A DNA stretch of 64,000 bases from the NCBI GenBank assembly GCA_024692925.1, contig JAILLX010000088.1:152-64151 (forward strand), in the 5' to 3' direction. The position numbers and the translations under genes were made by a program. Under the pieces are notes generated by a model. It was not told the DNA's origin, made no database searches, and saw only the letters and a list, made by a program, of their open reading frames with translations. This document shows positions 10,373 to 42,376 of this stretch, piece by piece (within the stretch, counting starts at the first letter, position 1; each line of letters opens with the position of its first letter). This DNA is from a bacterium. Lineage in GTDB: Bacteria > Pseudomonadota > Alphaproteobacteria > Rs-D84 > CACZYB01.

Positions 10373-11032
10373 TTATATAAATATTTGACCAGTCATTTTA
10401 AGTGTCTTTGGAAATGCTTTAAGACTACTGTTTCCACTTACAAAAATATGACCATTAACAAAATTATTTCCTGCAAAACTTAATGCTTCCGAATTAATAA
10501 GGTATATATTTCCAATCACATGGAAATTTTTCGGAATTTTTACAAAGTTAATATCTTTGATATACAAATCACCTTCGATTCGCACATTGGATTTAAGATA
10601 TTCCAAATGTCCCTTTGTAAACAAAACATTACCACTTATAACCTTAACTTTTGACGAAGATTTTTTAAATTTCACAACATTAGTTTTCTTCGAAGTCAAA
10701 ACTTGTTTACGGCAATTTTTACCATTACAAAGCAACTTTGCCTTATTCAAATATCTATCGCTTGCATAATTTTTAAGACCCGCAGAAAGAGGAATTCCTC
10801 TTTTAAACTCAACACCATCATCATAAACAAAATTAACTTTCGTAGGTCTTGCAAAAGGAACAAAAATATTTTCTGGTTTATCTTCTTTATTAGCCTTTAT
10901 ATAAGCACGAATTTCCGCCTTTTTAACTTCTTTTGCTGATTTTTTATAAGTTTTCATATAAACAAAACCACCCAAAATCATCAAAAATAATCCGGTAAAA
11001 ACAAGCATATATCTTTTTTGTTCAGTATTCAT
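10373..11032 (-). CDS. membrane-anchored hypothetical protein with C-terminal repeat-like region
   Basis: 219 aa; N-terminal TM helix; C-terminal N/I/G-rich repetitive segment (leucine-rich-repeat-like). Confidence 0.45.
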   Translation of the reverse strand: MNTEQKRYMLVFTGLFLMILGGFVYMKTYKKSAKEVKKAEIRAYIKANKEDKPENIFVPFARPTKVNFVYDDGVEFKRGIPLSAGLKNYASDRYLNKAKLLCNGKNCRKQVLTSKKTNVVKFKKSSSKVKVISGNVLFTKGHLEYLKSNVRIEGDLYIKDINFVKIPKNFHVIGNIYLINSEALSFAGNNFVNGHIFVSGNSSLKAFPKTLKMTGQIFI

Positions 11033-11111: not shown

Positions 11112-11981
11112 TCATATTTTAAAATCAGTCCTAATTTTAAATGGAATATTAGGCAATTTCCGCACATTTCTTATTCTTCCACCAACAACAGCCGGCATTT
11201 TCACAGGCTCAGCCAAAATTGCACCAGCAACACTATCCAAACCATCATCATGAACATTGCTATCAACATTCCAGTCTGTAAATTCGCCAATAAACGGAGT
11301 ATTTTTCACTGATTCGTTCACAAAAAGATAGCCCGCAGACACAACCGCATCAAACGCATCCAAAATCCTAAGCTCCTTTGAAACCTTTGAAGTTTTTGCA
11401 ACAACAACCGTATCAATTCCCATTTTCAAAAGTTCGGATCTTAAAAACTCTGGTAAAAATTTACCAATACCATTACTTTCAACATTAATAAGCGGTACAA
11501 AATTTCTTTTTAAAAATCGCCCAACACTTTGACATTGATATCGTGCAGATTGCACATCCTCGCCGTCCTTAAAATAAAGATATTCCACATCATGCAGGTA
11601 ATACCGCCCATCTTCATCAATGAAAACAACTGACACAACCGAACCATCACCATTTTTGGAACCATACGCCGGATCCCACCAACAAGACATACTGATAATT
11701 CGTTTATCCATAATGGAAAAGAAAAGTTCCCTATTCCGCTCCTCTCGTTTTATCTCGGCATCATAGAATGAAAGTTTATTCACATCAAACCTTCCATCAC
11801 TAATATCAACCGGACAAAGCATCATCTGGGCTGAAAATTTTTTCATACCAACTGATTTTTTAAGTTGTTCTATTTTCTCCAACGGAAACTTTTCTTCCCA
11901 AACTGACTTTCCATTTTCAATAACCGGAATTTTCAAGACATCATAACCAATCAAAAAAGCATCGAAAACATCATCACTCAT
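11112..11981 (-). CDS. phage terminase large subunit, C-terminal nuclease (RNase H-like) domain only
   Basis: 289 aa; WWDPAYGSKNGDGSVVSVV (beta1 catalytic Asp) and C-terminal HDDGLDSVAGAI terminase signature; ATG overlaps the portal stop (ATGAGTGA). Confidence 0.8.
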   Translation of the reverse strand: MSDDVFDAFLIGYDVLKIPVIENGKSVWEEKFPLEKIEQLKKSVGMKKFSAQMMLCPVDISDGRFDVNKLSFYDAEIKREERNRELFFSIMDKRIISMSCWWDPAYGSKNGDGSVVSVVFIDEDGRYYLHDVEYLYFKDGEDVQSARYQCQSVGRFLKRNFVPLINVESNGIGKFLPEFLRSELLKMGIDTVVVAKTSKVSKELRILDAFDAVVSAGYLFVNESVKNTPFIGEFTDWNVDSNVHDDGLDSVAGAILAEPVKMPAVVGGRIRNVRKLPNIPFKIRTDFKI

Positions 11982-13485
11982 TTTTTACATCAATCAAATT
12001 TTCCGGCACAGAAAATGTCTTTGCAAGCCACAATGCAACCGCCTTTTTATCGACAATATTTGTTGCCTCTGTCCCAAGTTCAGAAAGAGCCTTTATCCAT
12101 GCCAAAATATTTTCCGCATCACGCACCGCCTGATTTTTTGCAAGTGGTGATTGATACTTCAAATCAACCTCATGCCCATCAATAAATATGTCTTCTATCT
12201 CACCCCTGCGTTTCAAAATTGAAACCGCACGAAGAATAACCGGCGTCAAAAATTCAGATTGAAGTCGGCCATATGTTGCACCCAAAATTCGGCTCATCTG
12301 ATTTGTTCGTTCAATAACTTCTGTCGCAGTCATCTTTGCCGAATTAAAAGATAAAATTTGATCCACCAAAAGACTGTGATTTATCTTTGCCCTTAAATCC
12401 GAAAGGACCAATTGCGAAACATCGAAATCCGCACCGGTCCTAAGTGGTGTAAGCCCACTTGACCCCACCGCCTTTGGAATAATTGTTCCCGGAGCCAAAG
12501 TAATATTTTCGATATTAAGGACACCATCATCATCCGCTTGCCAAACACCACTTACTGCAATTGATGCATTTTTAAGGATAAGTTCCACCACCTTATTTGC
12601 AGTTTTTATATCAGGCAAAGCACTCATCACCGGCGATCTTCCATAAATTTCTGATGGTACTTTCATCCATCTGAAACAAATGAACGGTGAGTTTGCAAAC
12701 ACCCCTGTTTTAAGGACAAATTTATGCCCAAGTTTAAGACAATTATTTTCATCAATTACGAATGCAACATAATTATAACCCTGTTGCCCACATGCATTTA
12801 TCCTTGGCAAAACAGCTTCTATCACCGTCACCATTTCATCCGGATTTTTATTTATATATGAAAGTTGTACTTCATCAAATTCAAAATTTGAAAACCTTAA
12901 TTTCAAATTCAAAAGTGAAAGATTTGTCCTTCTGAAAACCGTATCCAACTTACCATTCAAATTTTCCTCTAATGCAATTTCATTCATTGGCACCGCAGTA
13001 AATTTGAATGCAGAAACATCACCAACCTGATTTTCTTCCATAAGCATTACCGCAGTTCCAATAGTAATCAAATCCAAATAACACTGATGAGCTTCCACAT
13101 AAAAATTTGATCTATCGAAATGAGATTGCAAAGTTTTTTGTATCTTTTCCAATTGTTTGTATTTTTCGGATTTTGTATCTGCATCATCAATCACATCAAC
13201 ACCAAACCCAAGTCCAAACCATCGTGACCATGGTGGAGTAAGTTCCGATAAAATACTTCCTGCTAATTTTGCAACACCACTTTCCGCAGTCGAATCAAAA
13301 ATATCAGGACTTTTCTTTTTTGAATATTGCCCACCGGTAAAAAGTCCACCTTTTTGTGGCAAGGCAAAATCATAACATTCATTCCAATCTGGTTCCCACT
13401 CCAACCTTTTTTCCATTGCCAATTTGTATCTTGAATAAATTTTTTCAAGTTCCATTTCATCAACAACATATCTGTTTTCAAGCAT
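11974..13485 (-). CDS. T7 gp8-like head-to-tail connector (portal) protein
   Basis: 503 aa; alignable by eye to T7 gp8 (D..DSTAESGVAKLAG..L..L.PPW region; conserved YGRS motif in VPSEIYGRSPVMSAL). Confidence 0.8.
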   Translation of the reverse strand: MLENRYVVDEMELEKIYSRYKLAMEKRLEWEPDWNECYDFALPQKGGLFTGGQYSKKKSPDIFDSTAESGVAKLAGSILSELTPPWSRWFGLGFGVDVIDDADTKSEKYKQLEKIQKTLQSHFDRSNFYVEAHQCYLDLITIGTAVMLMEENQVGDVSAFKFTAVPMNEIALEENLNGKLDTVFRRTNLSLLNLKLRFSNFEFDEVQLSYINKNPDEMVTVIEAVLPRINACGQQGYNYVAFVIDENNCLKLGHKFVLKTGVFANSPFICFRWMKVPSEIYGRSPVMSALPDIKTANKVVELILKNASIAVSGVWQADDDGVLNIENITLAPGTIIPKAVGSSGLTPLRTGADFDVSQLVLSDLRAKINHSLLVDQILSFNSAKMTATEVIERTNQMSRILGATYGRLQSEFLTPVILRAVSILKRRGEIEDIFIDGHEVDLKYQSPLAKNQAVRDAENILAWIKALSELGTEATNIVDKKAVALWLAKTFSVPENLIDVKNE

Positions 13486-13507
13486 ATTAAACCCCTTTTC
13501 TTAAATT

Positions 13508-13542
13508 AAAAAAATCCCTTTAAGATAAAATTCTTAAAGGGA
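13508..13542 (-). terminator. rho-independent terminator downstream of ftsZ (minus strand)
   Basis: tccctttaag/cttaaaggga 10-bp stem followed by T-run on the minus strand. Confidence 0.6.
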
Positions 13543-13563
13543 GGTTAAAAAAAATTATAACTA

Positions 13564-15252
13564 TTATTTACTGCTATTATCCTTTTTAAATATTGCCGGA
13601 ATATGCATAGTTTCTTCCATTTTTTGCAACATTTCCATAATATCAGTTTGTTGAGCTTCTTGCTTTTGTTCTTCAAGTCCGCCCGCTAAAAATACGACAT
13701 TATCATCTTCGTGTTTTTCAGTTTTTTCCAATGCTTTCACTTCTAAATTTTCAGATTTCGAAAGCTTTGAATCATCATCACCGAATGTATCAACATCATC
13801 AAAGAAATTATCCTCTTTTGATTCGCCAAGCATATCAAAAAATGATGACAAAGGACTTTTCTTTTTTCCATTACCGCCGTTTGGATCGGTTGGATCATCA
13901 TCGCCATTATCATCATCTTTTTTTGAAACTTCAGCCTCATTCTTTTTTGTAATTTCTTCGGCTTCACGATTTATAAAATCGTCAATACTAAGTGATTCAT
14001 TTTTTTTCATAAAAGCGTCAAAACTATTATCTTCGGTTTGTCCCATATCCTTAAACAAACTTTCAGGTTCAGTTTTTTCATTATCCAAAACAAGTTCGTT
14101 TGCCCCAAGTTCATCAATTGCGACCGAAGGGTCTTTTTCAAATGTTTCGTTATCTATTGGCAAAGGTTTTTCTTCGACTTTTTTCTCTTCCTTTCTATCC
14201 GAAGAAAGAGAAGTCATAAAATCATTCACAACAGGTTTTGTCGCAAAAACATTACCATTTGAAACTGCTTCAGAAAGCCCAGTTGCAATAATCGCCACCT
14301 TTAAATTTTCGCCCATATTTGCATCAAAGCAAGTACCAAGATAAAAGTTTGTTTCATCGCCATCAATTTCACGTCTGATGCTATTCATCACCTCGGCTGG
14401 TTCATCCAAAGAAAGGTTTTCCGGATTCGCAGTAATATTCACCAAAACCGACCTTGCCCCCCTTATATCATTACCGGAAAGCATTGGGTTTTGCAAAACG
14501 CCACTTACTGCCTTAATCGCCCTATCCTCACCACTTTGAACTGATGTACCGATAAGGGTTCTTCCACTTTCCTCCATAACCGCACGAATATCCGCAAAAT
14601 CAAGGTTTATTGTACCTGGGATACGGATTAAATCAGTAATATTTTTCACCCCTTCATAAAGGACATTATCCGAAACCTTAAACGCATTCAAAAATGTCAT
14701 TTGCTTTCCCGCAACATGATAAAGGTTTTGATTAGGAAGCACGATATAAGAGTCCACATTTGGAACCAACTTTGCAATTGCATCGTTTGCAATTTTTTCC
14801 TTTTTCTTTCCTTCAAATTCAAACGGAGTAGTAATAATCGCCACGGTCAAAATTCCCTTTTCCCGAGCAAGCCCAGCAATCACCGGCATTGCACCACTAC
14901 CTGTACCGCCACCCATACCAGCAGTCAAAAAAAGTATATTAGTATTTTTAATTATATCAGAAATTTCGCCACTTGATTCTTCGGCTGCCTTCTGCCCAAC
15001 TTCTGGCCTTGAACCGGCACCAAACCCCTTGGTTGTCTGTTTACCAAGTTGAATTTTTTTCGAAGCCTTTGATTGAATAAGCGATTGTGCATCCGTATTT
15101 GCCACAACAAAATCGACACCATCGATTCCCTGACTAATCATATTATTTACGGCATTACAACCAGCCCCACCAACACCCATTACGGTAATTCGTGGAATAA
15201 AATTTTGAATTTCGTCGTCATTTGATTTATATCCGAAATTTCCTTCAATCAT
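13564..15252 (-). CDS. ftsZ: cell division GTPase FtsZ (long acidic C-terminal linker)
   Basis: 562 aa; ITVMGVGGAGCNAV, tubulin signature LFLTAGMGGGTGSGAMPVIA, NLDFADIRAVM; C-terminal HIPAIFKK resembles conserved DIPAFLR peptide. Confidence 0.92.
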   Translation of the reverse strand: MIEGNFGYKSNDDEIQNFIPRITVMGVGGAGCNAVNNMISQGIDGVDFVVANTDAQSLIQSKASKKIQLGKQTTKGFGAGSRPEVGQKAAEESSGEISDIIKNTNILFLTAGMGGGTGSGAMPVIAGLAREKGILTVAIITTPFEFEGKKKEKIANDAIAKLVPNVDSYIVLPNQNLYHVAGKQMTFLNAFKVSDNVLYEGVKNITDLIRIPGTINLDFADIRAVMEESGRTLIGTSVQSGEDRAIKAVSGVLQNPMLSGNDIRGARSVLVNITANPENLSLDEPAEVMNSIRREIDGDETNFYLGTCFDANMGENLKVAIIATGLSEAVSNGNVFATKPVVNDFMTSLSSDRKEEKKVEEKPLPIDNETFEKDPSVAIDELGANELVLDNEKTEPESLFKDMGQTEDNSFDAFMKKNESLSIDDFINREAEEITKKNEAEVSKKDDDNGDDDPTDPNGGNGKKKSPLSSFFDMLGESKEDNFFDDVDTFGDDDSKLSKSENLEVKALEKTEKHEDDNVVFLAGGLEEQKQEAQQTDIMEMLQKMEETMHIPAIFKKDNSSK

Positions 15253-15398
15253 AATCTCCCCCTTTTGACTTCATTCCCTAAGTATACCATAAAAAAAGCA
15301 AAAAGTTAAGATATAAAAAGCAAAAACGAAAAATATTTTTATTGACTAATCAGAACCAAACACATCCATTCCGGACTTGATTTGGAATCCACAAAAAA

Positions 15399-15908
15399 TT
15401 ATTCGCTAATACTTACATTTGACAAAGCATTATTGCAATCTTCTGCCTTATCCATAAGTTCAGCAAGTTCCTTTGTCGATGATGCCGAAAGTGCCACCGA
15501 AACCAGATTTGCACCTGTCGCCACACCCGAAGCAATAGTCGATGCCAACCGCAAATTTTTCAACTTTGCATTATTATCTTTGTTTATATTTGTCTCAGAT
15601 TTTGCATTAGCTTTTTCACCAATTGCTATATTGTCTTTTTCTTCATTAGCCTTAATAATCTTGCCCGCCTTTAACGCAGCCATTGTGGATGTAGTCGCAC
15701 CAACACCACTTGCCACGGTCGCAACACCCGATGTCACACTGGTTCCAATTGATTTTGATTTCACTTCATTAAGCACAGATTTATCAAACACACAAGTGGA
15801 AATTACCGCCTCTATATTCTCAGCCTGCTTTTTAATTTTTGTGGAAGAAAGCTTTGCCTCCGCCCCAGTTGATACAAAAGCCAACAAAACCAAAATTAAT
15901 TTTTTCAT
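15399..15908 (-). CDS. secreted Gly/Ala/Thr-rich protein
   Basis: 169 aa; signal peptide; GVATVASGVGATTS / GVATGANLVS glycine-zipper-like segments; stop abuts the start of the upstream 553-aa gene. Confidence 0.45.
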   Translation of the reverse strand: MKKLILVLLAFVSTGAEAKLSSTKIKKQAENIEAVISTCVFDKSVLNEVKSKSIGTSVTSGVATVASGVGATTSTMAALKAGKIIKANEEKDNIAIGEKANAKSETNINKDNNAKLKNLRLASTIASGVATGANLVSVALSASSTKELAELMDKAEDCNNALSNVSISE

Positions 15909-17569
15909 TATTCTTCTCCATAACTTTCAAGTTCAGCATTATAAGAGTTGTAAAGCAATTTCAATGCCGACATTTTTGACTCACATTCTTGCAAATGCGA
16001 AAGTGCAGAATCCGCAGTCGCAACCGCTGCCAAAGAAAGAGCAAATGTTCCACCCGATGTTAAAAGTGACCCAGCATTAAGTCCCGCCTGTACCCAATCC
16101 AAAGTATGCGAAGTCTTTACATTGCTATCCACCGACTTTTCGATACTTTTTCTTTGAGAAATCTTACTATTGTTTTCTTCTATCTTTTTAATTCTATTCT
16201 CAAGAAGAACTAAACTATCAGTCATATTTGTTAAACCAGTATCGCTAACATAATTAGATGGATTATTTCTTGCATCACTCCAAATCTCAACAGAAATATT
16301 ATCAGCTTCATTTTTCAACTCTGCATACCTTTTTTCATAAGATTTATCAAATTTATCCTTAGAATCATAACTCAAACCATAAGACTGAATTCTTGCCTTA
16401 CAAGAACCTGCTATCTTATCATCGACAAATTCAGGTTTTTTATTATTATCCAACTTTGTATACTTTTTACATTCAGTAATTTTACTTCCATCATTAGACC
16501 ATTTTACACCACCCATTTCACCTTCAAATTTTAAGAAATCGAAAGTTTTTTCATTAACTTTTTTCTCGACTTCTTTATCATTAAGATTTACTCCTAAGTC
16601 CTTCTTTTTTTCTGCAATCTTAGATTCAAGCTCTTCTTTTGCTCTTAATACACAACCCAATTTTTCTGTTGCAAGCTTGCTCTCATCTAACTTAGTACTT
16701 TCAACCAGACTAAGATCTATCGAAGATTTACAATCATCCTTAGTCGACTTATCTTCTTCACCAGAAACATCTGTTATTTTATTATACTGTTCTATTTTCT
16801 TGCCTACCTCGTTGGTCTTCTTAACATTCACAACACCAACTGCGGTTGCACCACCCGAAAGCAACATACCACCAACCGAAAGCCCAGTCGACCAACCAAG
16901 TTGACCTTTCAACTTTTCCATATCGTCATAAAATGCCGAGCAAGAAGACTTTGCATCATTTATCGCACTAACAATCTTTGGCACAAATTCCGCCACATCA
17001 ACAAACTGTTCATAATCAAATGACATATAGTTCACATCGACATCCGACCTTACAATTTTTAAACGGCGGGAAAGTGCAAATGTTTCAAGTTGAGATTTGC
17101 TTGCCTCCACCAATTCAATTGTATACGAATACCCTGCAAGCAATGGCTGACATTCGAACCCAGCCTCTGCACTATACGAAACAATATCCCCAGATGATGA
17201 AATTCCGGTTAGTTTCATATACGGACCAAAGCAAAGTGTTTCATTAAGCCCTGCTGATCCATTTGATTTATAATATGCCGAAACACTAGGGAGCAACATC
17301 GTCGCCAAATCATACTTCACATCATACCTAAGTTTTGTATCAAAAACCGCAGAGTCGGCAATAAACCTATGTGTCGAAGTTTGTATTGATGAACCTGACG
17401 ATGAACTACTTGAACTGGAAGATGAAGTCGATGACCTACTTGCCCTTAATTCAGATGATGATGTTGCACGTTTCGAAGATCTTGTACTTTTCTTCTTTTT
17501 TGCAAAGGCACCATCGCCCAACCCAAGGCAAAGACTTAAAACCAAACCAGAAACAATAACTTTTCTCAT
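15908..17569 (-). CDS. secreted coiled-coil protein with basic Ser/Arg-rich N-terminal module
   Basis: 553 aa; signal peptide, KKKKSTRSSKRATSSSELRASRSS, poly-Ser, long coiled coil, Gly-rich hydrophobic segments; paralogous to 47176..48756. Confidence 0.5.
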   Translation of the reverse strand: MRKVIVSGLVLSLCLGLGDGAFAKKKKSTRSSKRATSSSELRASRSSTSSSSSSSSSSGSSIQTSTHRFIADSAVFDTKLRYDVKYDLATMLLPSVSAYYKSNGSAGLNETLCFGPYMKLTGISSSGDIVSYSAEAGFECQPLLAGYSYTIELVEASKSQLETFALSRRLKIVRSDVDVNYMSFDYEQFVDVAEFVPKIVSAINDAKSSCSAFYDDMEKLKGQLGWSTGLSVGGMLLSGGATAVGVVNVKKTNEVGKKIEQYNKITDVSGEEDKSTKDDCKSSIDLSLVESTKLDESKLATEKLGCVLRAKEELESKIAEKKKDLGVNLNDKEVEKKVNEKTFDFLKFEGEMGGVKWSNDGSKITECKKYTKLDNNKKPEFVDDKIAGSCKARIQSYGLSYDSKDKFDKSYEKRYAELKNEADNISVEIWSDARNNPSNYVSDTGLTNMTDSLVLLENRIKKIEENNSKISQRKSIEKSVDSNVKTSHTLDWVQAGLNAGSLLTSGGTFALSLAAVATADSALSHLQECESKMSALKLLYNSYNAELESYGEE

Positions 17570-17696
17570 TCCAATTCTCCCATAAATATATTAAACATAG
17601 TACCATATTTTTGGACATAATCCAAGCAATATTTGAAAAAATTTACTTTTTTTGTTGCGTTTTAGTAAAATATCGGTTATAAACTATACATCCGAT

Positions 17697-17772
17697 GGCG
17701 AGGTAGCTCAGTTGGTAGAGCAAAGGACTGAAAATCCTTGTGTCGGCAGTTCGATTCTGCCCCTAGCCACCA
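17697..17772 (+). tRNA. tRNA-Phe (GAA)
   Basis: Cloverleaf by hand: acceptor GGCGAGG/CCUAGCC (one G4.A69 mismatch), D-loop AGUUGGUAG, anticodon loop cuGAAaa, T-loop UUCGAUU, encoded CCA. Confidence 0.88.
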
Positions 17773-17779
17773 TAAATTC

Positions 17780-17810
17780 ACTCCCCACTGTTTTGTGGGG
17801 AGTTTTTTTA
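17780..17810 (+). terminator. rho-independent terminator after tRNA-Phe
   Basis: ctccccac...gtggggag hairpin + T-run. Confidence 0.6.
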
Positions 17811-17828
17811 TTTCGAAAAATGATTATT

Positions 17829-19016
17829 TTATTTTGAATTATATTCCGATATTCCAAGGAAATCCTCTAATTTTACTGATCCTTTTTTTAAACTTTCCGT
17901 TCCCTTTACAAACATATTGTCACAATCAAGATATCCCTTTAAACGAGTCTGAAGTTCAGAATACCAAGGTTTTTCCTTTAATCCATTAAGTATAAATTTC
18001 AAATTTTCATTCATTTTATTTGAATGATTACGAATAGTCATATCCAAAAATGGGTTATAATCCTTAATACTACTTTCGGAATGTATTTCCGCTATCTTTG
18101 CAAAAGCCGAATACATATCAAAATTTAGTTTACTTCCATCAACAATGCTATTCATAATACTTTTACGCATTGAAAAAAACACACCACCAGAAGTCAAAGT
18201 TTTATAGACATTATCAATATTTTCATCCATTAACTTTTCATTAAACTCAATCAATGAAAGCCCTTCATCTTCCAACCTACTTTCCAAAGATTCGGAATGG
18301 GATTTATTACCACCATCACCCTTTAACCCCATATCATTTGCAATACTTGCAACCTTCACAGAAACATCATCTTCATGGGAAGATACAAATTTTTTCCCCA
18401 TTTCACCCAATGAAAGTTTTACAACATTATCCCTCAAAATATGAAACAATATAGAATTTTTTTCCTCATCCGATTTTGCATTTTCATAATCGAATTTAGT
18501 ATAATAATCAGCTACCTCTAAAATCTGTTTTACCTCATCTTCTGTATAATTCGAAGTTTTATAAACAGCAGAGTTTTTGCCAATTTCATACAATTTATCC
18601 CCTTTTTGTACTGGCTTAACAATAAAGGCATTATCAGGCAACACCAATCCCGTATCAGGATTAGGAATAAACCATGTATCATCTACCGAAACACTTTGTG
18701 GATTTACATTTTTACTAACCAACTCATTATATGGTATCAACACTACAAAAGGAGTTTTATCCCAATTCCCAGCCATATGAGATGTTACCACTTGATTTAA
18801 TGTTACATGCACACTAGCCCTAGGAAGCTTATAATCCGTAGCCATACCAGTAGTTTCAATATATCGCTCGCCATTCAAATTAACCTTTGGCTCATACTTT
18901 GTTGCATGAACACAAACCCAATTTTTCACATCAGACATATAGTCCACTTTGGCTTTTTTATCTTTTAATTCAAAAGATTCTACTTTTTCTAATAATTCCA
19001 TTTTTGCTCCTATCAA
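17829..19016 (-). CDS. hypothetical protein
   Basis: 395 aa intact ORF, no recognisable motifs; lies between the terminase ATPase half and tRNA-Phe. Confidence 0.45.
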   Translation of the reverse strand: MIGAKMELLEKVESFELKDKKAKVDYMSDVKNWVCVHATKYEPKVNLNGERYIETTGMATDYKLPRASVHVTLNQVVTSHMAGNWDKTPFVVLIPYNELVSKNVNPQSVSVDDTWFIPNPDTGLVLPDNAFIVKPVQKGDKLYEIGKNSAVYKTSNYTEDEVKQILEVADYYTKFDYENAKSDEEKNSILFHILRDNVVKLSLGEMGKKFVSSHEDDVSVKVASIANDMGLKGDGGNKSHSESLESRLEDEGLSLIEFNEKLMDENIDNVYKTLTSGGVFFSMRKSIMNSIVDGSKLNFDMYSAFAKIAEIHSESSIKDYNPFLDMTIRNHSNKMNENLKFILNGLKEKPWYSELQTRLKGYLDCDNMFVKGTESLKKGSVKLEDFLGISEYNSK

Positions 19017-20083
19017 AACCCAAAATTATTATAGCATTTTTACAAATCAAAAAACAATAATTAAAAAAAGCAAATATTCCATTCAATTCTAAAGGTAATC
19101 ATTAAAAATATCCTCCATATTTTAAACGAAAAACCAACACAAAAACACCCAACATTTTCCAATCCTCAAATCCATATTGTTCATTTATTGACAAATATTT
19201 ATTTTAGTCCTAAAAATTTGAGAATTCTCGAAAAAAAATAACAAAAAAGTGATTTTTTTATTTGAAATTTAAAAATTAAATTGCTAAAAAAGAACTATGT
19301 TTCGACCGATTCGAGAATCGATTCTATTTTTTACAAAAAGAATCGGTTTTTAAAGTGCTTTTTCTAGTGATTTTTCACTAGACAATTTGATTTTTCAAAA
19401 AGAATCTTAAAATTTTTAACTGATTGATTTTACAGTAAAATTTTTTGTTTTTCTTAGTTTAAAAAGTTGCCAAAAAAAGAATCGCTTGACTTTTTTTGTC
19501 GAGTAGTTTAAGAATCTAGCTATGAAACGAATTTGAAATATATTTTTAAGTTTGTTTTCACAGTTATTCCCTGTTGCGTTCCTTTTCTCTCCTTTCCTCC
19601 TTCTCTCCTCGCAACGGGGAATTTTTTTTATCTTGAGCAAGATATCCGAGTAAACAACCTTCCCTTGCCATTGCAAAGCAAAGGCGTGACAATCCATAAT
19701 AAGACAAACACATCTACTGTCACCCTGAACTTGTTTCAGGGTCCAGATCCCGAAATAAATTCGGGATGACCAAAGTTGGCGGAAATATCCCACTTTACCA
19801 TTACGAGAAATCCTAGAATTGCTGGTTTGTATACTCGGTTGGCTCCGATAAAAAAATCCCTTAAGTCGAGGAGAGAGAGAAAATAAGGAGGGAATGACTT
19901 AAGGGATATACTGGCTTTCACCAGACTTGCCGAAATGAGGGGTCGTCTCGGCAAATTTTGTTTTCGTATTAACGAATTGACTTCATTATACAAATTTATT
20001 TTTCTTTGTCAATATATTTTTGAAAAAAATTTTTATTTGTATAATATTTTTAATTTTTTCAGTAAAATCAATAGGTTTTTATT
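19017..20083. promoter_or_regulatory. ~1.07 kb non-coding region: AT-rich iterated AAAAAGAATC repeats and palindromes, then a GC-richer block of long hairpins
   Basis: AAAAAGAATC at 19335, 19397, 19474 (+AAGAATC 19509); palindromes gagaattctc, gaatcgattc, ctagtga-N5-tcactag; hairpins 19569-19619 and 19858-19905 with complementary CT-/GA-rich 28-31 nt loops. Confidence 0.5.
19719..19743. repeat. palindromic hairpin repeat, copy A (gtcaccctgaacttgtttcagggtc)
   Basis: Same unit as at 41931, 42046, 42377; stem carries a compensatory change (ccctgaa/ttcaggg vs tcctgaa/ttcagga); preceded by shared 18-nt box aatccataataagacaaa (19691-19708). Confidence 0.7.
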
Positions 20084-20683
20084 CTAAGTTTTATAAATTG
20101 TATCCAATGTATGAGGTGTCCCAATAAAAATTTGCATACCATTTGGCACCAAAATAAAGCTATATTCCAAAAGTTTCTCTCTCAAATCTTGTCTTTTTTG
20201 AAAAGTATCGCAATTTTTTGGTACCTCCACATCATCACAAATCACAACATCAGCCCTACTTCCCGTAGCATTAGACATAAGTCCCACCGCCATCATAGAT
20301 GGATCCCGCAAAGCCACATCACGTGCCACGGTAAAACTTCCCGACGCCCACTCTGATTTTTTCTCAGGTCTAATTTCTTCTAACAAAGGAAAAGTTTCAA
20401 TAATTCGCTTAACATTTCTGACCATCTTTTTTGCCAAAACTGTATCCGCCGCAACCACTAAAATCCTAAGGTTCGGATTAGTATATAAAAGCCACGCACA
20501 AAACACACCAACTATTGTTGACTTTCCACTACTTCGAAACGCCATCAAAAGACCTTTTTTATTTTCAGATTTGTAAATATTCAAAAGCCACTTTGCAATA
20601 CGTATATGGTGCGATGGTGTCGAAAGTCCCTGAAATTTATTCCAATCCAAAAGGAATTTTTCAAAATCAACTTTTTCAACCAT
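20084..20683 (-). CDS. phage terminase large subunit, N-terminal ATPase domain only
   Basis: 199 aa; Walker A AFRSSGKST, ILVVAADTVLAKK, Walker B GSRADVVICDDVE, IFIGTPHT: matches Terminase_6N-type ATPase core; ORF stops after the ATPase domain. Confidence 0.82.
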   Translation of the reverse strand: MVEKVDFEKFLLDWNKFQGLSTPSHHIRIAKWLLNIYKSENKKGLLMAFRSSGKSTIVGVFCAWLLYTNPNLRILVVAADTVLAKKMVRNVKRIIETFPLLEEIRPEKKSEWASGSFTVARDVALRDPSMMAVGLMSNATGSRADVVICDDVEVPKNCDTFQKRQDLREKLLEYSFILVPNGMQIFIGTPHTLDTIYKT

Positions 20684-20684
20684 T

Positions 20685-21110
20685 TTATACTATATTCAAA
20701 TCACCAAATGAATCCAACAAATCCAAACTTTTCTTTCGCATAGTCAAAAGATTTTTATTTTTCTTATAGTTATAATTTATATCATTCGAAGCCAAAGCAA
20801 GATCGGAAAAATATTCCTTATTTTTAATTTCATCCTCTGCTTCTCTTTCCATACTACCAAGAAGGACTGCCGAAGACCCATCTGTAAAATCCACACCATT
20901 TGATGCCATCTTTGCTTTTTTACTTGCAACTTTTGATTTAAGAAGGTTTCTTTTTTCCTCCTCATAAAGTTCTTGTTTTTTCCTTAAATTATCCTCTTGA
21001 ATCTTTGCTTCTTTTTTTGCTAATTTTTTTGATTTTTTAGCATCTTGTATATCCATCACGGTTTTCGCAGCAGAAACAACTCCACCAATCACCGCAGCCG
21101 TAGTTCCCAT
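20685..21110 (-). CDS. hypothetical coiled-coil protein (position of T7 gp13-like internal/assembly protein)
   Basis: 141 aa; follows the gp12-like gene as gp13 does in T7; no direct motif. Confidence 0.35.
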   Translation of the reverse strand: MGTTAAVIGGVVSAAKTVMDIQDAKKSKKLAKKEAKIQEDNLRKKQELYEEEKRNLLKSKVASKKAKMASNGVDFTDGSSAVLLGSMEREAEDEIKNKEYFSDLALASNDINYNYKKNKNLLTMRKKSLDLLDSFGDLNIV

Positions 21111-21122
21111 AATAAATACCTC

Positions 21123-22997
21123 CTATCTTATTACATCAACCAACATTGACATATTTAAAATTTTTAATTTACAAGGAGCCGAACTTTGAATTTTAAACAA
21201 AGGAATTTGGTAATTTTTAACAAAACCTTTTCCACGAATTTTTACATCACCAGAAAAATATTCATCATTAAGAATTATATTTTTAAGTCCCGCCCCTGTA
21301 TCTACTTCCAACTTTTCTGTATCCATAAGTCGTAAATTAAGTTCCAACAGTCTTACCGCCTTTGGAATAAAGCTTGAACCAACAAACAAAGGTAAAGGAC
21401 AAAAGATATGAGTAAAAGGAAGCCCAACAACAATATTTTTACAAGGCTTCGGCAAACTAACTTCATTATTTTCCACCCGTAAATTATAAATTTCACCATC
21501 CGCAACAACTACTACATCTTTATTATTTAAAAAGTCCAAATCAGTAATAGTCGAAATTTCCGTTATCGAAGATATTTTCTTTGCTTTATCAAGAAATAAA
21601 TCTTCATCAAAAACTTCTAAACTATAGGTTCCATCTCGTTCCACAACGACATAAACTTTATCAAATAACACAGCCAACGATTTAAACTTTCCATTGGTTT
21701 TATATTGCACCCACGCATTTGTATTATGACTTTTGTTTATAAGAAGTACTGCCAAAGTTCCATCTTCCTGTACAACATAAAGCCTTCGTTTTTTAACATT
21801 ATAATCTTGTTCCAATGGATTATTAAGAAGATGTGACGAAAGCAAAATTAAATCTTCGGATGAATAATTTTCACTTAAATCGCCATAGAAAAACTCTCTT
21901 ATTTCCTTTTTATTTCTTGCCACAAAAATTGTTGAACCTTCTACAAATTTCGGAGCAATATACCTATCATCCACCGACCCAATTTTTGTTTGTTGACTAA
22001 CACTGATATTCGACGGAGTAATCGGATTCCCAACAACCATCCATTCGGAATCAGATGTAAAAACTTGTAAATGTTTACCGGCAAAAACCGAAACTATTTG
22101 ATTACGCTTGTCTGAAAAAATATCAAATTCAATAGCTTCATCATCAAGTCCACTTCCCAAATCGAAATTAAAGTATTCACCAATTTTTGAAAACCACAAC
22201 CTATTTTTTAAAACATCAGTTCCACCAATCACAAGTCTGTTTTGATAAAAAGCAATACTTGCCGGATATCCACTTTTCTCAGAAAATGCCTGTTCTTGCC
22301 AATTTGCATCTGCATCTTTTGAATTCAAATCCACATTAACAGTTGCATTTGCAACACGTCCCGTAGAAACAGAATTTATCAGTATTTCTCCACCATTTAT
22401 CAAAATCTTCACACCGACATAAATACTGGAAAACAAAGATTGACTTGCCACAATTTTTATTTCCCCAGTTGTCCCATTAGGTGTCAATGTAATCCCTTCG
22501 GTACCATCAATTCTTGTATACGGTTCACACGAATATCCATATGTCGGATGTTTAGGATATATCCAAAAAGCAATAGTCCATGTTCCAACCAACTTATTAT
22601 ACCTAATAATCCGAGGCGGAATAAAAGGATGAACCAAATACAAAGTTTGTCCCTTTTGCACCCATCGCATCTTTGGCAAATCAGAAAGAGTATACGGTGA
22701 ATCTAATGTAGTCACAAACTCACCATTTTTATTAAAAATATCAATATATTCATCTCTGAAAAAAAGTAAAAACATACTGTCTTCGGAATATTCAAAGGCA
22801 ATAATTTTCCCATTTGATTCCAAACTTGAAACAAATTTCAAACCGCTTCGTCTTTCAATACCACCTGTCTGAATCACATCAAAATTAGTAAGGTTCATCG
22901 CCGAACTTCTGTATGCCGAAATATTTCCACGCCCAAACAAATTTCGTGAAAGTTCGCCAAACGAAAAATCATTATAAGTAATACTTTGTTTTGCCAT
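21123..22997 (-). CDS. T7 gp12-like tail tubular protein B
   Basis: 624 aa; KNRLWFSKIGEYFNFDLGSGLDDEAIEFD aligns to T7 gp12 RNRLGFLSG..AKYFNFYP..LSDDDPID; gene order gp11-gp12 preserved. Confidence 0.7.
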   Translation of the reverse strand: MAKQSITYNDFSFGELSRNLFGRGNISAYRSSAMNLTNFDVIQTGGIERRSGLKFVSSLESNGKIIAFEYSEDSMFLLFFRDEYIDIFNKNGEFVTTLDSPYTLSDLPKMRWVQKGQTLYLVHPFIPPRIIRYNKLVGTWTIAFWIYPKHPTYGYSCEPYTRIDGTEGITLTPNGTTGEIKIVASQSLFSSIYVGVKILINGGEILINSVSTGRVANATVNVDLNSKDADANWQEQAFSEKSGYPASIAFYQNRLVIGGTDVLKNRLWFSKIGEYFNFDLGSGLDDEAIEFDIFSDKRNQIVSVFAGKHLQVFTSDSEWMVVGNPITPSNISVSQQTKIGSVDDRYIAPKFVEGSTIFVARNKKEIREFFYGDLSENYSSEDLILLSSHLLNNPLEQDYNVKKRRLYVVQEDGTLAVLLINKSHNTNAWVQYKTNGKFKSLAVLFDKVYVVVERDGTYSLEVFDEDLFLDKAKKISSITEISTITDLDFLNNKDVVVVADGEIYNLRVENNEVSLPKPCKNIVVGLPFTHIFCPLPLFVGSSFIPKAVRLLELNLRLMDTEKLEVDTGAGLKNIILNDEYFSGDVKIRGKGFVKNYQIPLFKIQSSAPCKLKILNMSMLVDVIR

Positions 22998-23005
22998 TAC
23001 TCCTC

Positions 23006-23569
23006 CTATTTTCTTGCATCAATCAAAGAAAAATTTTTCAAAGATTCTGTTGTTTGTTGCATACCATCTATTGATTTTGCTTCTTTTATTTCAGAATTAA
23101 AAAGCCTGTAAAATAATGAATATTTTGATGTATCATTCAAAAGAGAAATCGAAAGTTCGGCAGCCATCAAATAAATAAATGATGAAACAAAAAGTGGTGA
23201 AAAACAATCCTCTCCTACATCAGAAATATACTCAAGTTCCACTTCTTCATCATTACAAAACAAATAGCTCCCTGCAATTTTGTATTTTACTCCTGATGAA
23301 ATTTTCACCGCCCTTAAAAAATCAGCCGGAAGAATATATGCATAACTGTAATCATAACGATTAACATCATCAGCCCTTGTCAACAACGCTGTTTTCAAGG
23401 CAAAACTCCACGCATAAAGGCAAAGAAGTTTTTGTTTTAATCCCAAATAAATACTTTCACAAATTTCCGATTCAACAGTTCCATCTTCAAAAGAAGTTAT
23501 CGAATTCGCCCCAATTTTATTAAGGGCTTTTGAACATAATTCAATATTTGAAAAACTCATATTACTCAC
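23006..23569 (-). CDS. T7 gp11-like tail tubular protein A
   Basis: 187 aa; N-terminus ELCSKALNKIGANSITSFEDG aligns to T7 gp11 [23 protein letters not shown]; size matches (196 aa). Confidence 0.65.
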   Translation of the reverse strand: MSNMSFSNIELCSKALNKIGANSITSFEDGTVESEICESIYLGLKQKLLCLYAWSFALKTALLTRADDVNRYDYSYAYILPADFLRAVKISSGVKYKIAGSYLFCNDEEVELEYISDVGEDCFSPLFVSSFIYLMAAELSISLLNDTSKYSLFYRLFNSEIKEAKSIDGMQQTTESLKNFSLIDARK

Positions 23570-23615
23570 CTTTTCCCTTTTTAAAAAAAGGGGGTCATTG
23601 CCCCCTTAAAATTTA

Positions 23616-23861
23616 CTAAACAACAGAAGATATACTTACTACACCCGCAGTAATCGCACTTACAACAAATATAGTTGTTTCCATTGTTCCATTTATAGAA
23701 GAAGATACAACAATCAAATCACCAACATTATAAATATTTGCAACATCGTTAAAATATCCTGATGTTGAAACAACACTCTTTGCATCTTCTGTTTTATAAT
23801 GCCACAAAGTAAAACCATTCGCATACGCAAGAACAGATAAATTTTTTGAATTCATACTCAT
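23616..23861 (-). CDS. hypothetical small protein between the capsid and tail tubular A genes
   Basis: 81 aa intact ORF; hydrophobic C-terminus. Confidence 0.35.
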   Translation of the reverse strand: MSMNSKNLSVLAYANGFTLWHYKTEDAKSVVSTSGYFNDVANIYNVGDLIVVSSSINGTMETTIFVVSAITAGVVSISSVV

Positions 23862-23896
23862 TTTATTTTTTCCTTTCCTTTTTTTATTTATAAAGC

Positions 23897-24727
23897 CTAA
23901 GCAATTGTTGCATCATCATCGCAAAGGATTTTTACAATACCTAAATTATCAATAAGTTTTGCACCCTGACTCATACAATTTGATACGAAATGAGATGCTC
24001 TTTCGCCATGCCATGAAATATCAGTTTTTACATCACAACCTGATGCATGACCTATTGCATTTTTGTGATAAATAAAGCAACTACGATTACCATCAGCAAT
24101 TGGCAAAGAATTATGTAAAATCCAATTAATTCCCATCCATTTTCTTGATTCTGTACCTTTCAAAAGAGGATATGAATCACCAACATAATCAGCACTGGAA
24201 AATTCTTCCATACTTAAAAGTTCATTCCATTGATGCACACCAACAACACCAAATCTTTGGCCATCATCCGGCACATCATTTGCATTTAAAAATTCTAATG
24301 CTTCAAAAATTTTTGATTTAGTAAGACCTGTTGAACCGGCACTAACCGCATTTGTTGCTTTATCAAGTTCTGAAATAATAAGTTCATCACTTTTTCTTCC
24401 CAAAGCATACGCACCAGCCGATGCAACAACTCTTCTTTCATCAATGTTTGTTTTAAGTTCATCAAGCTCGTCAACCCAATCCCCAGCATAGTAATCAGTA
24501 AGTACACATTCAACTGGTGTATGATCCAAATTCATCACTGGAACAAGTCCGTGTCTTGATTTAGTCGAAGCAATCCCCTTACCAATTTTTTGAAAAGTTG
24601 TTGAACTACCTCTTACATCATTTTTTGTTCTAACTGTTGAACGAAGTTTTGTTCCCATTTGTTGAAAAGCAAGGTGAACTTCCGCTTCGAATTGTTTTAT
24701 AAATACATTATCAATAGATACTGACAT
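23897..24727 (-). CDS. T7 gp10-like major capsid protein (HK97 fold)
   Basis: 276 aa; FEAEVHLAFQQ..RSTVRTKNDVRGSSTTFQKIGKG..ASAGAYALGRKSDELIISEL aligns to T7 gp10A FGGEVLTAF..SVTTSRHMVRSISSGKSAQFPVLGR..SQLGESLAMAADGAVLAEI. Confidence 0.78.
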   Translation of the reverse strand: MSVSIDNVFIKQFEAEVHLAFQQMGTKLRSTVRTKNDVRGSSTTFQKIGKGIASTKSRHGLVPVMNLDHTPVECVLTDYYAGDWVDELDELKTNIDERRVVASAGAYALGRKSDELIISELDKATNAVSAGSTGLTKSKIFEALEFLNANDVPDDGQRFGVVGVHQWNELLSMEEFSSADYVGDSYPLLKGTESRKWMGINWILHNSLPIADGNRSCFIYHKNAIGHASGCDVKTDISWHGERASHFVSNCMSQGAKLIDNLGIVKILCDDDATIA

Positions 24728-24835
24728 ATTTTAATCTCCTATATTTTATTAAAAAAAAGAGCAATATTTCTATTACCCAAACAAAAAATCCGCCTTGAAA
24801 CCAAGACGGATAAAAGTATAATTAAATCTTAAATT

Positions 24836-25396
24836 TTATTTTTTTACTTTTGTAATAATTGGTTCAATTCCCCTTACAATTCCATGCATCGAAGATATTG
24901 TAAACAAAACAGAAGCAAAAAATAGTACGAAAATTTGCACCGAAGATTCAATCAACTGTTTCGAATATTTTGTTAAAACCAAAAGATCTGTGTAAAACAA
25001 AATTGCAAATGCGAATGATACCAAAAATGAAACCAAAAGTTCGTATTTAAAAGATTTATTAAACACATATTCTATCTTTAATTTTTTCGATTTAATCATA
25101 ACATATTTTAAAATACCACACACAATAATAAAAGGCATAAATACTTTCACAATATTAAAAATTGCATCCACAACACCAATAAACATTATTTCGATTGGGT
25201 TCATTGCAAATCCAACAAGTTTATAAGTTTCCAACTTTTTAACAAAGGATTGTGTAAAGCATAAAATTACAGAAAGTACCAATACTGTTTTAATTATTGC
25301 ACCGGTATGATTATAAAAAAATCCCAACAATTTTCCAAAAAACGAAGATTTTTTATTTTCCTGTTTTCTGGTCTTGTTGGGATCCGAAACTACCAA
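24836..25396 (-). CDS. hypothetical polytopic membrane protein
   Basis: 186 aa; ~4 hydrophobic helices. Confidence 0.45.
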   Translation of the reverse strand: MVVSDPNKTRKQENKKSSFFGKLLGFFYNHTGAIIKTVLVLSVILCFTQSFVKKLETYKLVGFAMNPIEIMFIGVVDAIFNIVKVFMPFIIVCGILKYVMIKSKKLKIEYVFNKSFKYELLVSFLVSFAFAILFYTDLLVLTKYSKQLIESSVQIFVLFFASVLFTISSMHGIVRGIEPIITKVKK

Positions 25397-25404
25397 AGAA
25401 ATTT

Positions 25405-25839
25405 CTACTTCTTTGCTACTTTTTTTTTTGCTACTGGTTTAACAGCTTTCTTAACAGAAGCAACTTTTACAGCAGCTTTCTTAACAACGATTTTCTTTTT
25501 TGCTGGAGCTTTTACTGCAACTTTTTTTGCAGGAGCTTTTTTAGCAACTACTTTTTTAGCAGGAGCCTTTTTAACAGCAACCTTTTTAGCAGGAGCTTTT
25601 TTAGCAACTACTTTTTTAGCAGGTGCTTTTTTAACAGCAACTTTTTTTGCAACTACTTTTTTTGCTGGAGCTTTTTTAACAGCTACTTTTTTAGCAGGTG
25701 CCTTTTTAGCAGGAGCTTTCTTAACAGTAACTTTTTTTACTTCAACTTTTTTAACAGTAGTTTTTTTAACTTCAACTTTTTTTGCAGCTGGTTTTTTAGC
25801 AGCAGGTTTTACAGTTTTTTTAATTATACTTTTAAACAT
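25405..25839 (-). CDS. histone H1-like / Hc1-like Lys-Ala-rich DNA-binding protein (start reassigned to MFKS with AAGGAG RBS)
   Basis: ~144 aa; almost entirely KKAPAKKV(A/V)V decapeptide repeats; pI strongly basic. Confidence 0.72.
   Translation of the reverse strand: MFKSIIKKTVKPAAKKPAAKKVEVKKTTVKKVEVKKVTVKKAPAKKAPAKKVAVKKAPAKKVVAKKVAVKKAPAKKVVAKKAPAKKVAVKKAPAKKVVAKKAPAKKVAVKAPAKKKIVVKKAAVKVASVKKAVKPVAKKKVAKK
25440..25830. repeat. tandem ~30-nt coding repeats inside the H1-like gene
   Basis: gcaggagcttttttagcaactacttttttag... repeated >8x; the antisense ORFs 25297..25909 are artefacts of this repeat. Confidence 0.75.
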
Positions 25840-25929
25840 AATTCTCTCCTTAATTAAAACAAAAGACAATTACAATATACCACATAAAAAAGAATACTGC
25901 AATACTTAAATTAAAAAAATGCAAAAAAA

Positions 25930-26523
25930 TTATTCATCACCATACAAAAATTTAAAACCATCATCAACTTTTTTTATAAAATTTTTATCATTATCTCTCC
26001 AATATTTTGGATCCTTCATCATCTCTTTTAATTTTTCTTCTGTAATGACATCAGCAACTTCACCAGATTTTGCCATAACTTTTGGTTCACCCGAAGTCAT
26101 CATATTGTAAAGTGCAATCACGCCATAAAAAGATGTATTCAAAGATTGATAAATTTCAGCCGGTAAATTTTTATCAGCCCACAAAGAAATTTGTCGTGCA
26201 ATTTCATCAAATCTTTCTTCACCACCAAAATAATTTTCAAGCTTTGATAATTCTTTGTAAAGTTTAAATTCATTAACAACTTCCCTGATTTTTGGAATCA
26301 TAATTTCCGCAGCCAAATCATAAACAAGTTGTGCCTGTTCATTTGTAAATCCTGCAACTTTAAGCCTTTTGTTTACCTCTTCATCAATTGTTAAAAATTG
26401 GCTGTGAAGAACTATTTCATATCCCTTTTCTGCACCATCAGTTTTAAGTGCCAAATCCAAAATATCTTTGTTTGGATTAGTTTGCTTTTCATCCTGTTTT
26501 ATTTCAATTTTTTTATCTTCCAT
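25930..26523 (-). CDS. acidic helical protein, possible capsid scaffolding protein
   Basis: 197 aa; acidic, helical; position upstream of the capsid gene as gp9 is in T7; no direct motif. Confidence 0.3.
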   Translation of the reverse strand: MEDKKIEIKQDEKQTNPNKDILDLALKTDGAEKGYEIVLHSQFLTIDEEVNKRLKVAGFTNEQAQLVYDLAAEIMIPKIREVVNEFKLYKELSKLENYFGGEERFDEIARQISLWADKNLPAEIYQSLNTSFYGVIALYNMMTSGEPKVMAKSGEVADVITEEKLKEMMKDPKYWRDNDKNFIKKVDDGFKFLYGDE

Positions 26524-26850: not shown

Positions 26851-26866
26851 AATAACTCCTTTATTT

Positions 26867-42360: not shown

Positions 42361-42376
42361 ATTTTTTAATCTCAAA

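Follow-up and report, generated by a model that had tools for sequence, protein, structure and literature searches.

What do exported proteins gain from a dense cluster of positive charges placed directly behind their signal peptides? This question is raised by three genes, denoted here A, B and C, in a 64-kb stretch of DNA (the window) that belongs to an NCBI metagenome-assembled genome (MAG; K6F04_ locus tags) of a gut or rumen alphaproteobacterium related to the reduced-genome Candidatus Enterousia / Rs-D84 group. The coordinates of these genes, of the small gene S that follows A, and of their parts are collected in Table 1. The polybasic extension on exported proteins is a real, lineage-restricted feature; its predicted role, by analogy with OmcB, is that of a polyanion-binding tether on a flexible stalk, a reading to which we assign a probability of about 0.45.

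The polybasic module behind the signal peptide

A Shine-Dalgarno-like sequence is located upstream of each of the open reading frames (ORFs) A, B and C. The N-termini of A, B, C and S conform to the rules for Sec-dependent export and cleavage by signal peptidase I (SPase I) according to a heuristic scan for a basic n-region, a hydrophobic core of 10-15 amino acids (aa) and small residues at -3 and -1, with predicted cleavage (marked by a slash) at AFA/K in A, ADA/K in B, VNA/A in C and AEA/K in S, and these signals are conserved in homologues. The N-terminus of A reads MRKVIVSGLVLSLCLGLGDGAFA up to the cleavage site and KKKKSTRSSKRATSSSELRASRSS behind it, with poly-Ser next; in B the corresponding parts are MKNKKISILTLSAIILNEIIVFPLTADA and KTNRYTAKRRRAASASKLAASS, whereas in C the signal peptide ends in GDSIVNA and is followed by AKKRSSKRASSTSNKKKTSSKKSGSKRSASSKSSKRAASTNSRRAASTNSRRAARTNSRRAAAAARR. 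The original prediction of a Sec signal peptide followed by a basic stretch in three proteins thus holds, and its ORF coordinates and quoted sequences are exact. Two other types of export signal were considered and rejected. The lipoprotein (SPase II) signal, sought as [LVI][ASTVI][GAS]C at the cleavage site, is absent: A contains LSLC, with Leu at -1 and a Cys that is not conserved in orthologues, and the signal regions of B, C and S are devoid of Cys. The Tat signal (S/T-R-R-x-F-L-K) is absent as well, the n-regions being MRK, MKNKK and MLNKRSIGK, with Arg clusters located after the hydrophobic core and not before it.

Apart from K/R, the modules of A, B and C consist mainly of S/A/T; the C module, when counted over 69 aa, contains 35% K/R and no D/E. 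Among the 17,624 windows of 24 aa in the 66 non-overlapping ORFs of the 64-kb window, segments with at least 7 K/R, at most 1 D/E and at least 10 S/A/T were detected solely in A, B and C, starting at residue 15-23, with a background in the window proteome of 12.8% K+R and 13.3% D+E. The first 30 mature residues of the other ORFs with signal-peptide-like N-termini carry a net charge of -4 to +1, with three exceptions, namely a VirB2-like protein (4788-5426; +5/+6), a membrane protein encoded at 10373-11032 (+5) and the MacA-like membrane protein of 44399-45613 (+3). The VirB2-like gene, which is on the minus strand, encodes a 212-aa TrbC/VirB2-pilin-like protein (27.8 bits versus a gathering score of 27.9), in which a short basic stretch comes after the signal peptide (SMA/QRRRTTYHRSST), with two hydrophobic helices further on. 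In the AlphaFold2 (AF2) model of B, residues 7-59 have a predicted local distance difference test score (pLDDT) below 50, so the first approximately 60 residues are predicted to be disordered.

The relatives of all three proteins carry the module at the same position. The A orthologues form 21 clusters (P0104-P0124), with identity down to approximately 31%, and all of them combine a signal peptide, a K/R-rich head that shows the pattern K[KR]K.S.RA.KR..VRA at the module position, and poly-S/T. For the B family, the census included the homologues with a recognizable signal peptide and first motif, and those with no more than 35 aa between the cleavage site and the first conserved Cys were classified as short forms. 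The module is present in 51 of the 52 long forms, with means of 8.1 K/R and 0.8 D/E in the first 30 residues, and in none of the 31 short forms, where the corresponding means are 2.7 and 4.3. Nearly all long forms possess a low-complexity spacer of 68-147 aa (the 225 aa in P0087 probably reflect a motif mis-call), and the only long form that lacks the module has a spacer of 38 aa. Given that 51/52 long forms and 0/31 short forms have the head together with the spacer, the two make up a single unit, gained or lost together. In the C family, almost every full-length homologue (P0125-P0142) contains a signal peptide followed by long repeats of the SKRSAS, ARRAAS or KGLRSASS type that differ in number and sequence. 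The shared post-signal module is therefore real and does not represent generic compositional bias devoid of positional conservation, given the result of the window scan and the retention of the module in all A orthologues, 51/52 long-form B homologues and nearly all full-length C homologues.

What is conserved in the module is charge and composition but not sequence. In the closer A orthologues (approximately 50% identity), the module is 33-66% identical versus 58-74% for the repeat units, and overall the heads are 13-66% identical versus 42-80% for the conserved body units of the same pairs. Low identity is one of the observations that could be explained by functionless low-complexity drift, whereby slippage-prone K/R/S/A repeats are tolerated at a disordered N-terminus; the others are the 24-bp tandem repeat (3.2 copies, 40464-40540, coding for RAASTNSR units) that builds part of the C module and the variable repeats of the C homologues. 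Drift is nevertheless an improbable explanation given that position and charge bias are the same in all A orthologues and in the 51/52 long-form B homologues, that such segments are absent from all other ORFs of the window, with acidic residues almost excluded, and that close B homologues with differing spacers share identical modules.

A predicted electrostatic tether

Under the tether reading, cleavage of the signal peptide after export would leave the polycationic head as a free N-terminus that would bind a polyanionic surface by charge. The candidate targets include lipopolysaccharide, anionic lipids and peptidoglycan in the cell's own envelope as well as glycans, teichoic acids and nucleic acid of a partner or host. 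Behind the head lies either a spacer (poly-S/T or P/V/T/E-rich), which might keep the body at a distance as a flexible stalk, or a Cys-rich domain; the body itself could be a membrane-interacting array of helical hairpins or a Cys-rich adhesin-like domain, and the short-form paralogues, which lack the extension, would represent an untethered version. The role in sorting, anchoring or polyanion binding that the original prediction ascribed to the shared module is thus plausible. We favor the tether reading because the head is unique in the window and, for each of the three body types, keeps its position in orthologues with as little as approximately 31% identity; because its composition is kept without its sequence, it is strictly coupled to the spacer, predicted to be disordered and reused on different bodies; and because of the fast evolution of these proteins and the partner-dependent lifestyle of the organisms. 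Export of the bodies is supported by the short forms, in which the same body follows an ordinary AxA/D or AxA/E signal peptide, and by the 4 invariant Cys of the B family and the 32 Cys of C.

With respect to evolutionary rate, B is 66% identical to its orthologue versus 85-95% for the adjacent TolC, MacA and MacB, and the values for A and S are 50% and 43% versus 83% for FtsZ and 81% for the portal protein. Thus, A, S and B evolve much faster than their neighbors, which is typical of exposed proteins. With respect to lifestyle, the Rs-D84 genomes are smaller than 1 Mb and lack amino-acid, nucleotide and lipid biosynthesis as well as respiration, from which dependence on partner cells has been deduced (PMC12306168). 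A surface or partner-contact role is accordingly attractive for proteins encoded in such reduced, partner-dependent Rs-D84/Enterousia genomes. These gut Alphaproteobacteria seem to live off other cells (PMC12306168), and the A/B family and the polybasic extension provide concrete candidates for the surface or partner interface.

The post-signal basic module has known analogues, namely OmcB and HBHA-type basic tails, and the body family is unannotated. OmcB, an adhesin, is the chlamydial 60-kDa cysteine-rich outer membrane complex protein and has an N-terminal basic heparin-binding domain. This basic domain of OmcB, which follows the signal peptide, contains 26% K/R, is 18-29% identical between species, mediates heparan-sulfate-dependent adhesion on its own and precedes a conserved Cys-rich body (PMC2229832). 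Protein C copies this layout of signal peptide, basic domain and Cys-rich body, A and B copy it as signal peptide, basic head and conserved body, and in the OmcB domain and the heads of A, B and C alike, charge is conserved and sequence poorly so. The modules described here differ in being more basic (32-38% versus 26% K/R), in starting right at the SPase site and in the absence of the XBBXBX motif; the bodies differ as well, and no OmcB-type Pfam match (Chlam_OMP6/DUF11-type) was found for A, S, B or C, the resemblance being architectural only. The Arg-rich region of Neisseria NHBA binds sulfated glycans and DNA. The C-terminal Lys-rich domain of mycobacterial HBHA offers a similar parallel, that is, a disordered, low-complexity K/R/A/S-rich stretch by which an exported or surface protein attaches to sulfated glycans (PMC2229832). 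In HBHA and NHBA, however, the segment is C-terminal or internal and not immediately post-signal, and these proteins and bacteria are unrelated to those analyzed here.

Several observations weigh against a tether. Export of the dense positive segment is an assumption, and experiments of the Andersson and von Heijne type reportedly set positive charge in the early mature region against Sec export. In E. coli, positive charge right after the signal peptide hinders Sec export and favors cytoplasmic retention, in accord with the positive-inside rule (PMC9360617). Cardin-Weintraub heparin-binding motifs are scarce in the modules: XBBXBX is absent from all three, and XBBBXXBX is found once each in A and C and not in B. 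The A/B-type body shows no fold or family match. Finally, a profile of the N-terminal 58 aa, with the C family included in the seed, was run against 1.84 billion representatives and matched A/B-family proteins only, missing the C family. Given that the seed's own C family was missed, this search cannot decide on a common origin of the C and A/B modules, which is unproven. The profile search of the N-terminal module that had been proposed as a check recovered the A/B family, failed to recover the C family, and neither supports nor excludes the module elsewhere. As for export, a weak membrane potential of these cells would, speculatively, relax the constraint on the export of a positive early mature region. 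If these proteins are indeed exported, they would provide a natural exception to the rule, established in E. coli, by which post-signal positive charge blocks the Sec route.

The A/B-type and C-type bodies

The alignment of the B family reveals four invariant Cys and four uncharged G/A/S/T-rich stretches, and the family is further characterized by the motifs CSGI..L..I.G, K.LGN.RTGL.AG, C.GYD and KEKNLN..NILAG. The G/A/S/T-rich segments are 21-27 aa long and have a mean Kyte-Doolittle value of 0.7-1.35 and a best 19-aa window of 1.0-1.5, under the usual transmembrane threshold. Profile-profile comparison with hhalign aligns the N-terminal half of the body with the C-terminal half (97.5% probability, E 7.7e-12, 30% identity), and the B body is therefore a tandem duplication of a unit consisting of Cys, segment, loop or insert, segment, Cys. 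In other words, the body of this family comprises two tandem Cys-bracketed helical hairpins with two uncharged G/A/S/T-rich segments each. The AF2 models of B and of the short form P0083 are all-helical, with predicted template modeling scores (pTM) of 0.45 and 0.55, respectively, and in both the polar helices are modeled with high confidence and the G/A/S/T segments with low confidence.

B matches the family over its full length, A matches unit 1 only and S unit 2 only, whereas the C body is not a member. Distant paralogy links A to B (BLASTP E 1e-4; hhalign 98% probability), so that A, B and S constitute one unannotated, multi-copy family defined here. The paralogous family initially proposed for A, B and C accordingly holds for A and B, with S added, and does not extend to the C body, which is unrelated. 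The two helical bodies with G/A/T-rich segments were recognized correctly, as was the recurrence of these segments in S, which matches B at E 5e-9. The designation of the segments as glycine-zipper-like is apt in that they are uncharged and rich in small residues and is loose otherwise, with 0-2 strict GxxxG per segment. Membership in the glycine-zipper families, for which extended (G/A/S)xxxG repeats or a Pfam match was sought, was rejected: A, S and B have no Pfam match at E<=1, including Gly-zipper_Omp, YMGG and Rick_17kDa_Anti, and 67 B-family members have no glycine-zipper match at E<=0.01.

The B family encompasses 103 homologous protein clusters and 297 loci among the GTDB species representatives, all from uncultured Alphaproteobacteria of rumen, gut and termite gut, including Candidatus Enterousia and MAGs labeled 'Rickettsiales', with several copies per genome (at least five in RUG13061). 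Genes of the A/B family are also found in MAGs labeled Treponema sp., Bacteroidales and Muribaculaceae (P0108; L016, L019, L022, L056), probably as a result of binning contamination by small alphaproteobacterial contigs. In 17 loci (L033, 6864-10031, and 16 others), a distant short-form B-like gene is followed directly by a gene for a 1017-1952 aa signal-peptide protein without a Pfam match, which may be a conserved partner of this distant subfamily.

The relationship between A, S and B is that of a split gene. BLASTP aligns A 198-255 to B 143-200 and S to B 423-522, and in the hhalign comparisons, A 478-553 corresponds to B 322-403 (98% probability, E 6e-14) and S 30-165 to B 411-525 (98% probability, E 1.8e-13). 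The end of A coincides with the end of unit 1, and S corresponds to unit 2; A plus S is thus read as a B-type protein divided at the boundary of its units. The stop codon of A and the start codon of S share nucleotides (TAATG), suggesting that the two genes are translationally coupled, and the pair is conserved in RUG13061 (L002/L003). A row of three family genes was observed in L016 (1457-4265), where a B-like long form is followed by a second, divergent split pair that consists of a 363-aa A-type protein with FAAPRGGARARNLGG after the signal peptide and, immediately behind it, a 166-aa S-like protein. What is newly defined here is a lineage-specific, multi-copy, fast-evolving exported family with a repeat architecture and a split-gene variant, along with a charge-conserved N-terminal extension that is reused on different bodies.

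Searches for known folds and families produced no assignment. For A, S, B and C, comparison with Pfam, NCBIfam and PHROGs, as well as comparison of 67 family members with Pfam, yielded only noise (chorismate mutase, CT795, spanin2 and coiled-coil families, E>1e-3), and PDB sequence searches with single proteins and profiles gave nothing significant; the weak matches to prefoldin, PACSIN, PfRH5 and henipavirus F were rejected as compositional or coiled-coil. The N-domain of A (aa 65-197) has no Pfam or NCBIfam match and no significant PDB sequence match. Foldseek searches of the two AF2 models (B and P0083) against PDB and BFVD returned no meaningful template modeling (TM) score. The ClyA-type toxins among the matches (E 0.3-0.9, TM 0.14-0.27) are non-significant. 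The ClyA-family alpha-pore-forming toxins (ClyA, MakA, YaxAB, AhlB), several of which are among these weak matches, are elongated helical bundles whose semi-hydrophobic segments insert into membranes, an architecture that the B-type body may resemble, but there is no sequence or profile match between them, and the AF2 models are of moderate confidence only. The Caulobacter proteins CdzC and CdzD are surface-retained, contact-dependent glycine-zipper bacteriocins with small-residue hydrophobic repeats, to which a role in aggregation and in insertion into membranes has been attributed (PMC5380434). They resemble A, B and S in being alphaproteobacterial and in having small-residue hydrophobic segments. 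They differ in their length of 84-86 aa, extended GxxxG repeats and dedicated type I system, in contrast to the 169-553 aa helical proteins A, B and S with Sec signal peptides, four conserved Cys and only 0-2 GxxxG in each segment; their sequences are not similar to those of the Cdz toxins. A residues 468-543, which include the second G/A/S/T segment and a helix, weakly match the fusion-peptide/heptad-repeat region of henipavirus F (E 0.02), and one B-family member matches Pfam Fusion_gly at E 0.0048; this likeness is compositional only and does not reflect homology.

The body of C, with its 32 Cys, is indeed Cys-rich as first described. It shows sub-threshold similarity to PF07699, PF23091 and PF07562 (Ephrin_rec_like, TNFR-like and NCD3G; 15-25 bits versus cut-offs of 23-39), several C homologues carry precomputed matches to Ephrin_rec_like, TNFR-like or NCD3G families, and no PDB sequence match was found for C. 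The Cys-rich repeat of C is similar to the N-terminal domain of P0089, a B-family paralogue from the same MAG that combines a signal peptide, a basic head, a C-like Cys-rich repeat and a B-type body; P0091 has the same layout. Further proteins with a signal peptide and a basic stretch carry other or very divergent bodies. C is thus tied to A and B by a shared modular design and not by paralogy of the bodies.

The properties of the bodies bear on two other explanations of the extension. If it were a propeptide, the charged soluble leader would keep a membrane-active body inactive during export and would then be clipped at dibasic sites, which fits the many KR, RR and KK pairs, the semi-hydrophobic body segments (0.7-1.35 on the Kyte-Doolittle scale) that could need masking, and the short forms, which show that the body works without the extension. 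We consider this a long shot, in view of the absence of a dedicated protease adjoining the genes, apart from a trypsin-like neighbor in a few distant loci, of the C body, which does not look membrane-active and yet follows the longest module, and of the spacers, whose length (68-147 aa) and conserved composition exceed the needs of a cleavable leader. Alternatively, the hydrophobic N-terminus might be an uncleaved signal anchor flipped by the positive cluster, in which case the body would be cytoplasmic and the G/A/S/T segments would be inner-membrane helices. Such a topology agrees with the positive-inside rule (PMC9360617), the net charge being +6 to +12 after the hydrophobic segment versus +2 to +3 before it. 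It is, however, very unlikely, because the proteins contain canonical AxA sites, S comes with a signal peptide of its own, and the segments, with a best 19-aa window of 1.0-1.5, are less hydrophobic than is usual for transmembrane helices. In addition, the same body is found in paralogues behind ordinary cleavable signal peptides, with acidic residues next to them, and the hairpins are bracketed by 4 invariant Cys, with 32 Cys in C. The last two points, that is, the short forms and the conserved Cys pairs, make the flipped topology the best excluded of the four alternatives to the tether considered here.

A bolder extension of the tether reading, which is hardly probable as a whole, would cast the B-type family, with A plus S as its two-chain version, as a contact apparatus. 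The tails would dock on the anionic surface of a partner, and the disulfide-stapled, fusion-peptide-like hairpins would insert in the partner membrane as a pore or junction for the uptake of lipids, nucleotides and amino acids, with export allowed by the weak membrane potential of the non-respiring cells.

Genomic context of the exported proteins

B is the first gene of a same-strand array that continues with genes for TolC-like, MacA-like, ABC and MacB-like proteins, and C is located on the other side of this array. The adjacency of one member to a tripartite exporter, noted earlier, thus holds, with B and C both flanking it, but L007, the closest relative, is the only one in which B is likewise linked to the exporter, and this linkage is not seen around the distant homologues L004 and L005 or in the other 78 loci; a general functional link of the B family to MacAB-TolC was therefore rejected. 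This context is relevant to the possibility that head and spacer are not a binding tether but a signal that directs sorting or secretion in a second step of export, through the adjacent MacAB-TolC-type pump, by an unknown route or by vesicle loading. The arrangement of B, the array and C, kept in L007, and the fixed N-terminal position of the module on different bodies are compatible with such a signal. It is unlikely all the same, given that the pump linkage is missing at L004, L005 and the other 78 loci and may be mere shared synteny, that A and S are nowhere near a pump, and that the short-form paralogues have the same body and signal peptide without the module; moreover, we know of no outer-membrane secretion signal of this polybasic post-signal form.

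A and S, located between ftsZ and tRNA-Phe, are embedded in a set of T7/HTVC010P-like structural genes that is conserved. The original prediction had placed two members in or next to this phage-like cluster; only A, together with S, is found there. Phage cargo was considered for A and S and rejected, with no PHROG match, the A family absent from IMG/VR and the B family present in 2 viral contigs only, and the two are treated as cellular genes.

Table 1. Genes, protein parts and phage-like structural genes of the window (a slash marks the predicted cleavage site).
Feature	Position	Strand	Description
Gene A	15908-17569	-	553 aa; signal peptide, basic module, poly-Ser, conserved N-domain, repeat unit 1 with large variable Cys-containing insert
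A signal peptide	17501-17569	-	aa 1-23; MRK, hydrophobic core, AFA/K; from sequence and heuristic scan, kept in orthologues
A polybasic module	17429-17500	-	aa 24-47, KKKKSTRSSKRATSSSELRASRSS; 24 aa, 38% K/R, 1 D/E
A poly-Ser/Thr spacer	17378-17428	-	aa 48-64
A-family-specific conserved N-domain	16979-17377	-	aa 65-197; 2 conserved Cys; from alignment
A repeat unit 1	15911-16978	-	Cys210 and uncharged segment 224-247; variable insert 256-478; uncharged segment 499-519 and Cys529
Gene S	15399-15908	-	169 aa; own signal peptide (aa 1-18), no basic module, repeat unit 2 (Cys39, two G/A/S/T-rich segments, Cys157)
Gene B	47176-48756	-	526 aa; signal peptide, basic module, spacer, two tandem repeat units
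B signal peptide	48673-48756	-	aa 1-28; PLTADA/K
B polybasic module	48607-48672	-	aa 29-50, KTNRYTAKRRRAASASKLAASS; 22 aa, 32% K/R, 0 D/E
B T/V/P-rich spacer	48412-48606	-	aa 51-115; small predicted 3-strand sheet at aa 78-107
B body	47179-48330	-	aa 143-526; invariant Cys and motifs, internal duplication
B body unit 1			C155, segments 167-192 and 350-372, C384
B body unit 2			C420, segments 434-459 and 481-506, C518
Gene C	40269-41864	+	531 aa; signal peptide (aa 1-30), long basic repeat region, Cys-rich body (32 Cys)
C polybasic module	40359-40559	+	aa 31-97; 35% K/R, 0 D/E
C Cys-rich repeat	41115-41330	+	aa 283-354; BLASTP 41% identity, E 7e-11 to N-terminal domain of P0089
Scaffold	25930-26523
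Capsid	23897-24727
Tail tubular A	23006-23569
Tail tubular B	21123-22997
Internal virion protein	20685-21110
Large terminase, N-part	20084-20683		phrog_38 positions 270-459
Portal	11974-13485
Large terminase, C-part	11112-11981		phrog_38 positions 468-712

The structural genes of a T7/HTVC010P-like podovirus (11112-27600) flank ftsZ on both sides. The gene for the large terminase is split into two parts; the approximately 8 kb that separate them contain tRNA-Phe, A, S, ftsZ and the portal gene. The order of the phage-like genes is the same in RUG13061 (L002/L003; portal 81% identity), and the closest phage portals are those of Pelagibacter podophages (31-34% identity). This cluster may be a domesticated element resembling a gene transfer agent in a genome of less than 1 Mb. 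It is adjoined by a gene for a TraT-like lipoprotein (28397-29023, plus strand; PF05818, E 1e-35). Finally, a stand-alone ORF for a 101-aa GIY-YIG nuclease domain (42070-42375, minus strand) is located between C and the gene for the MacB-like permease.

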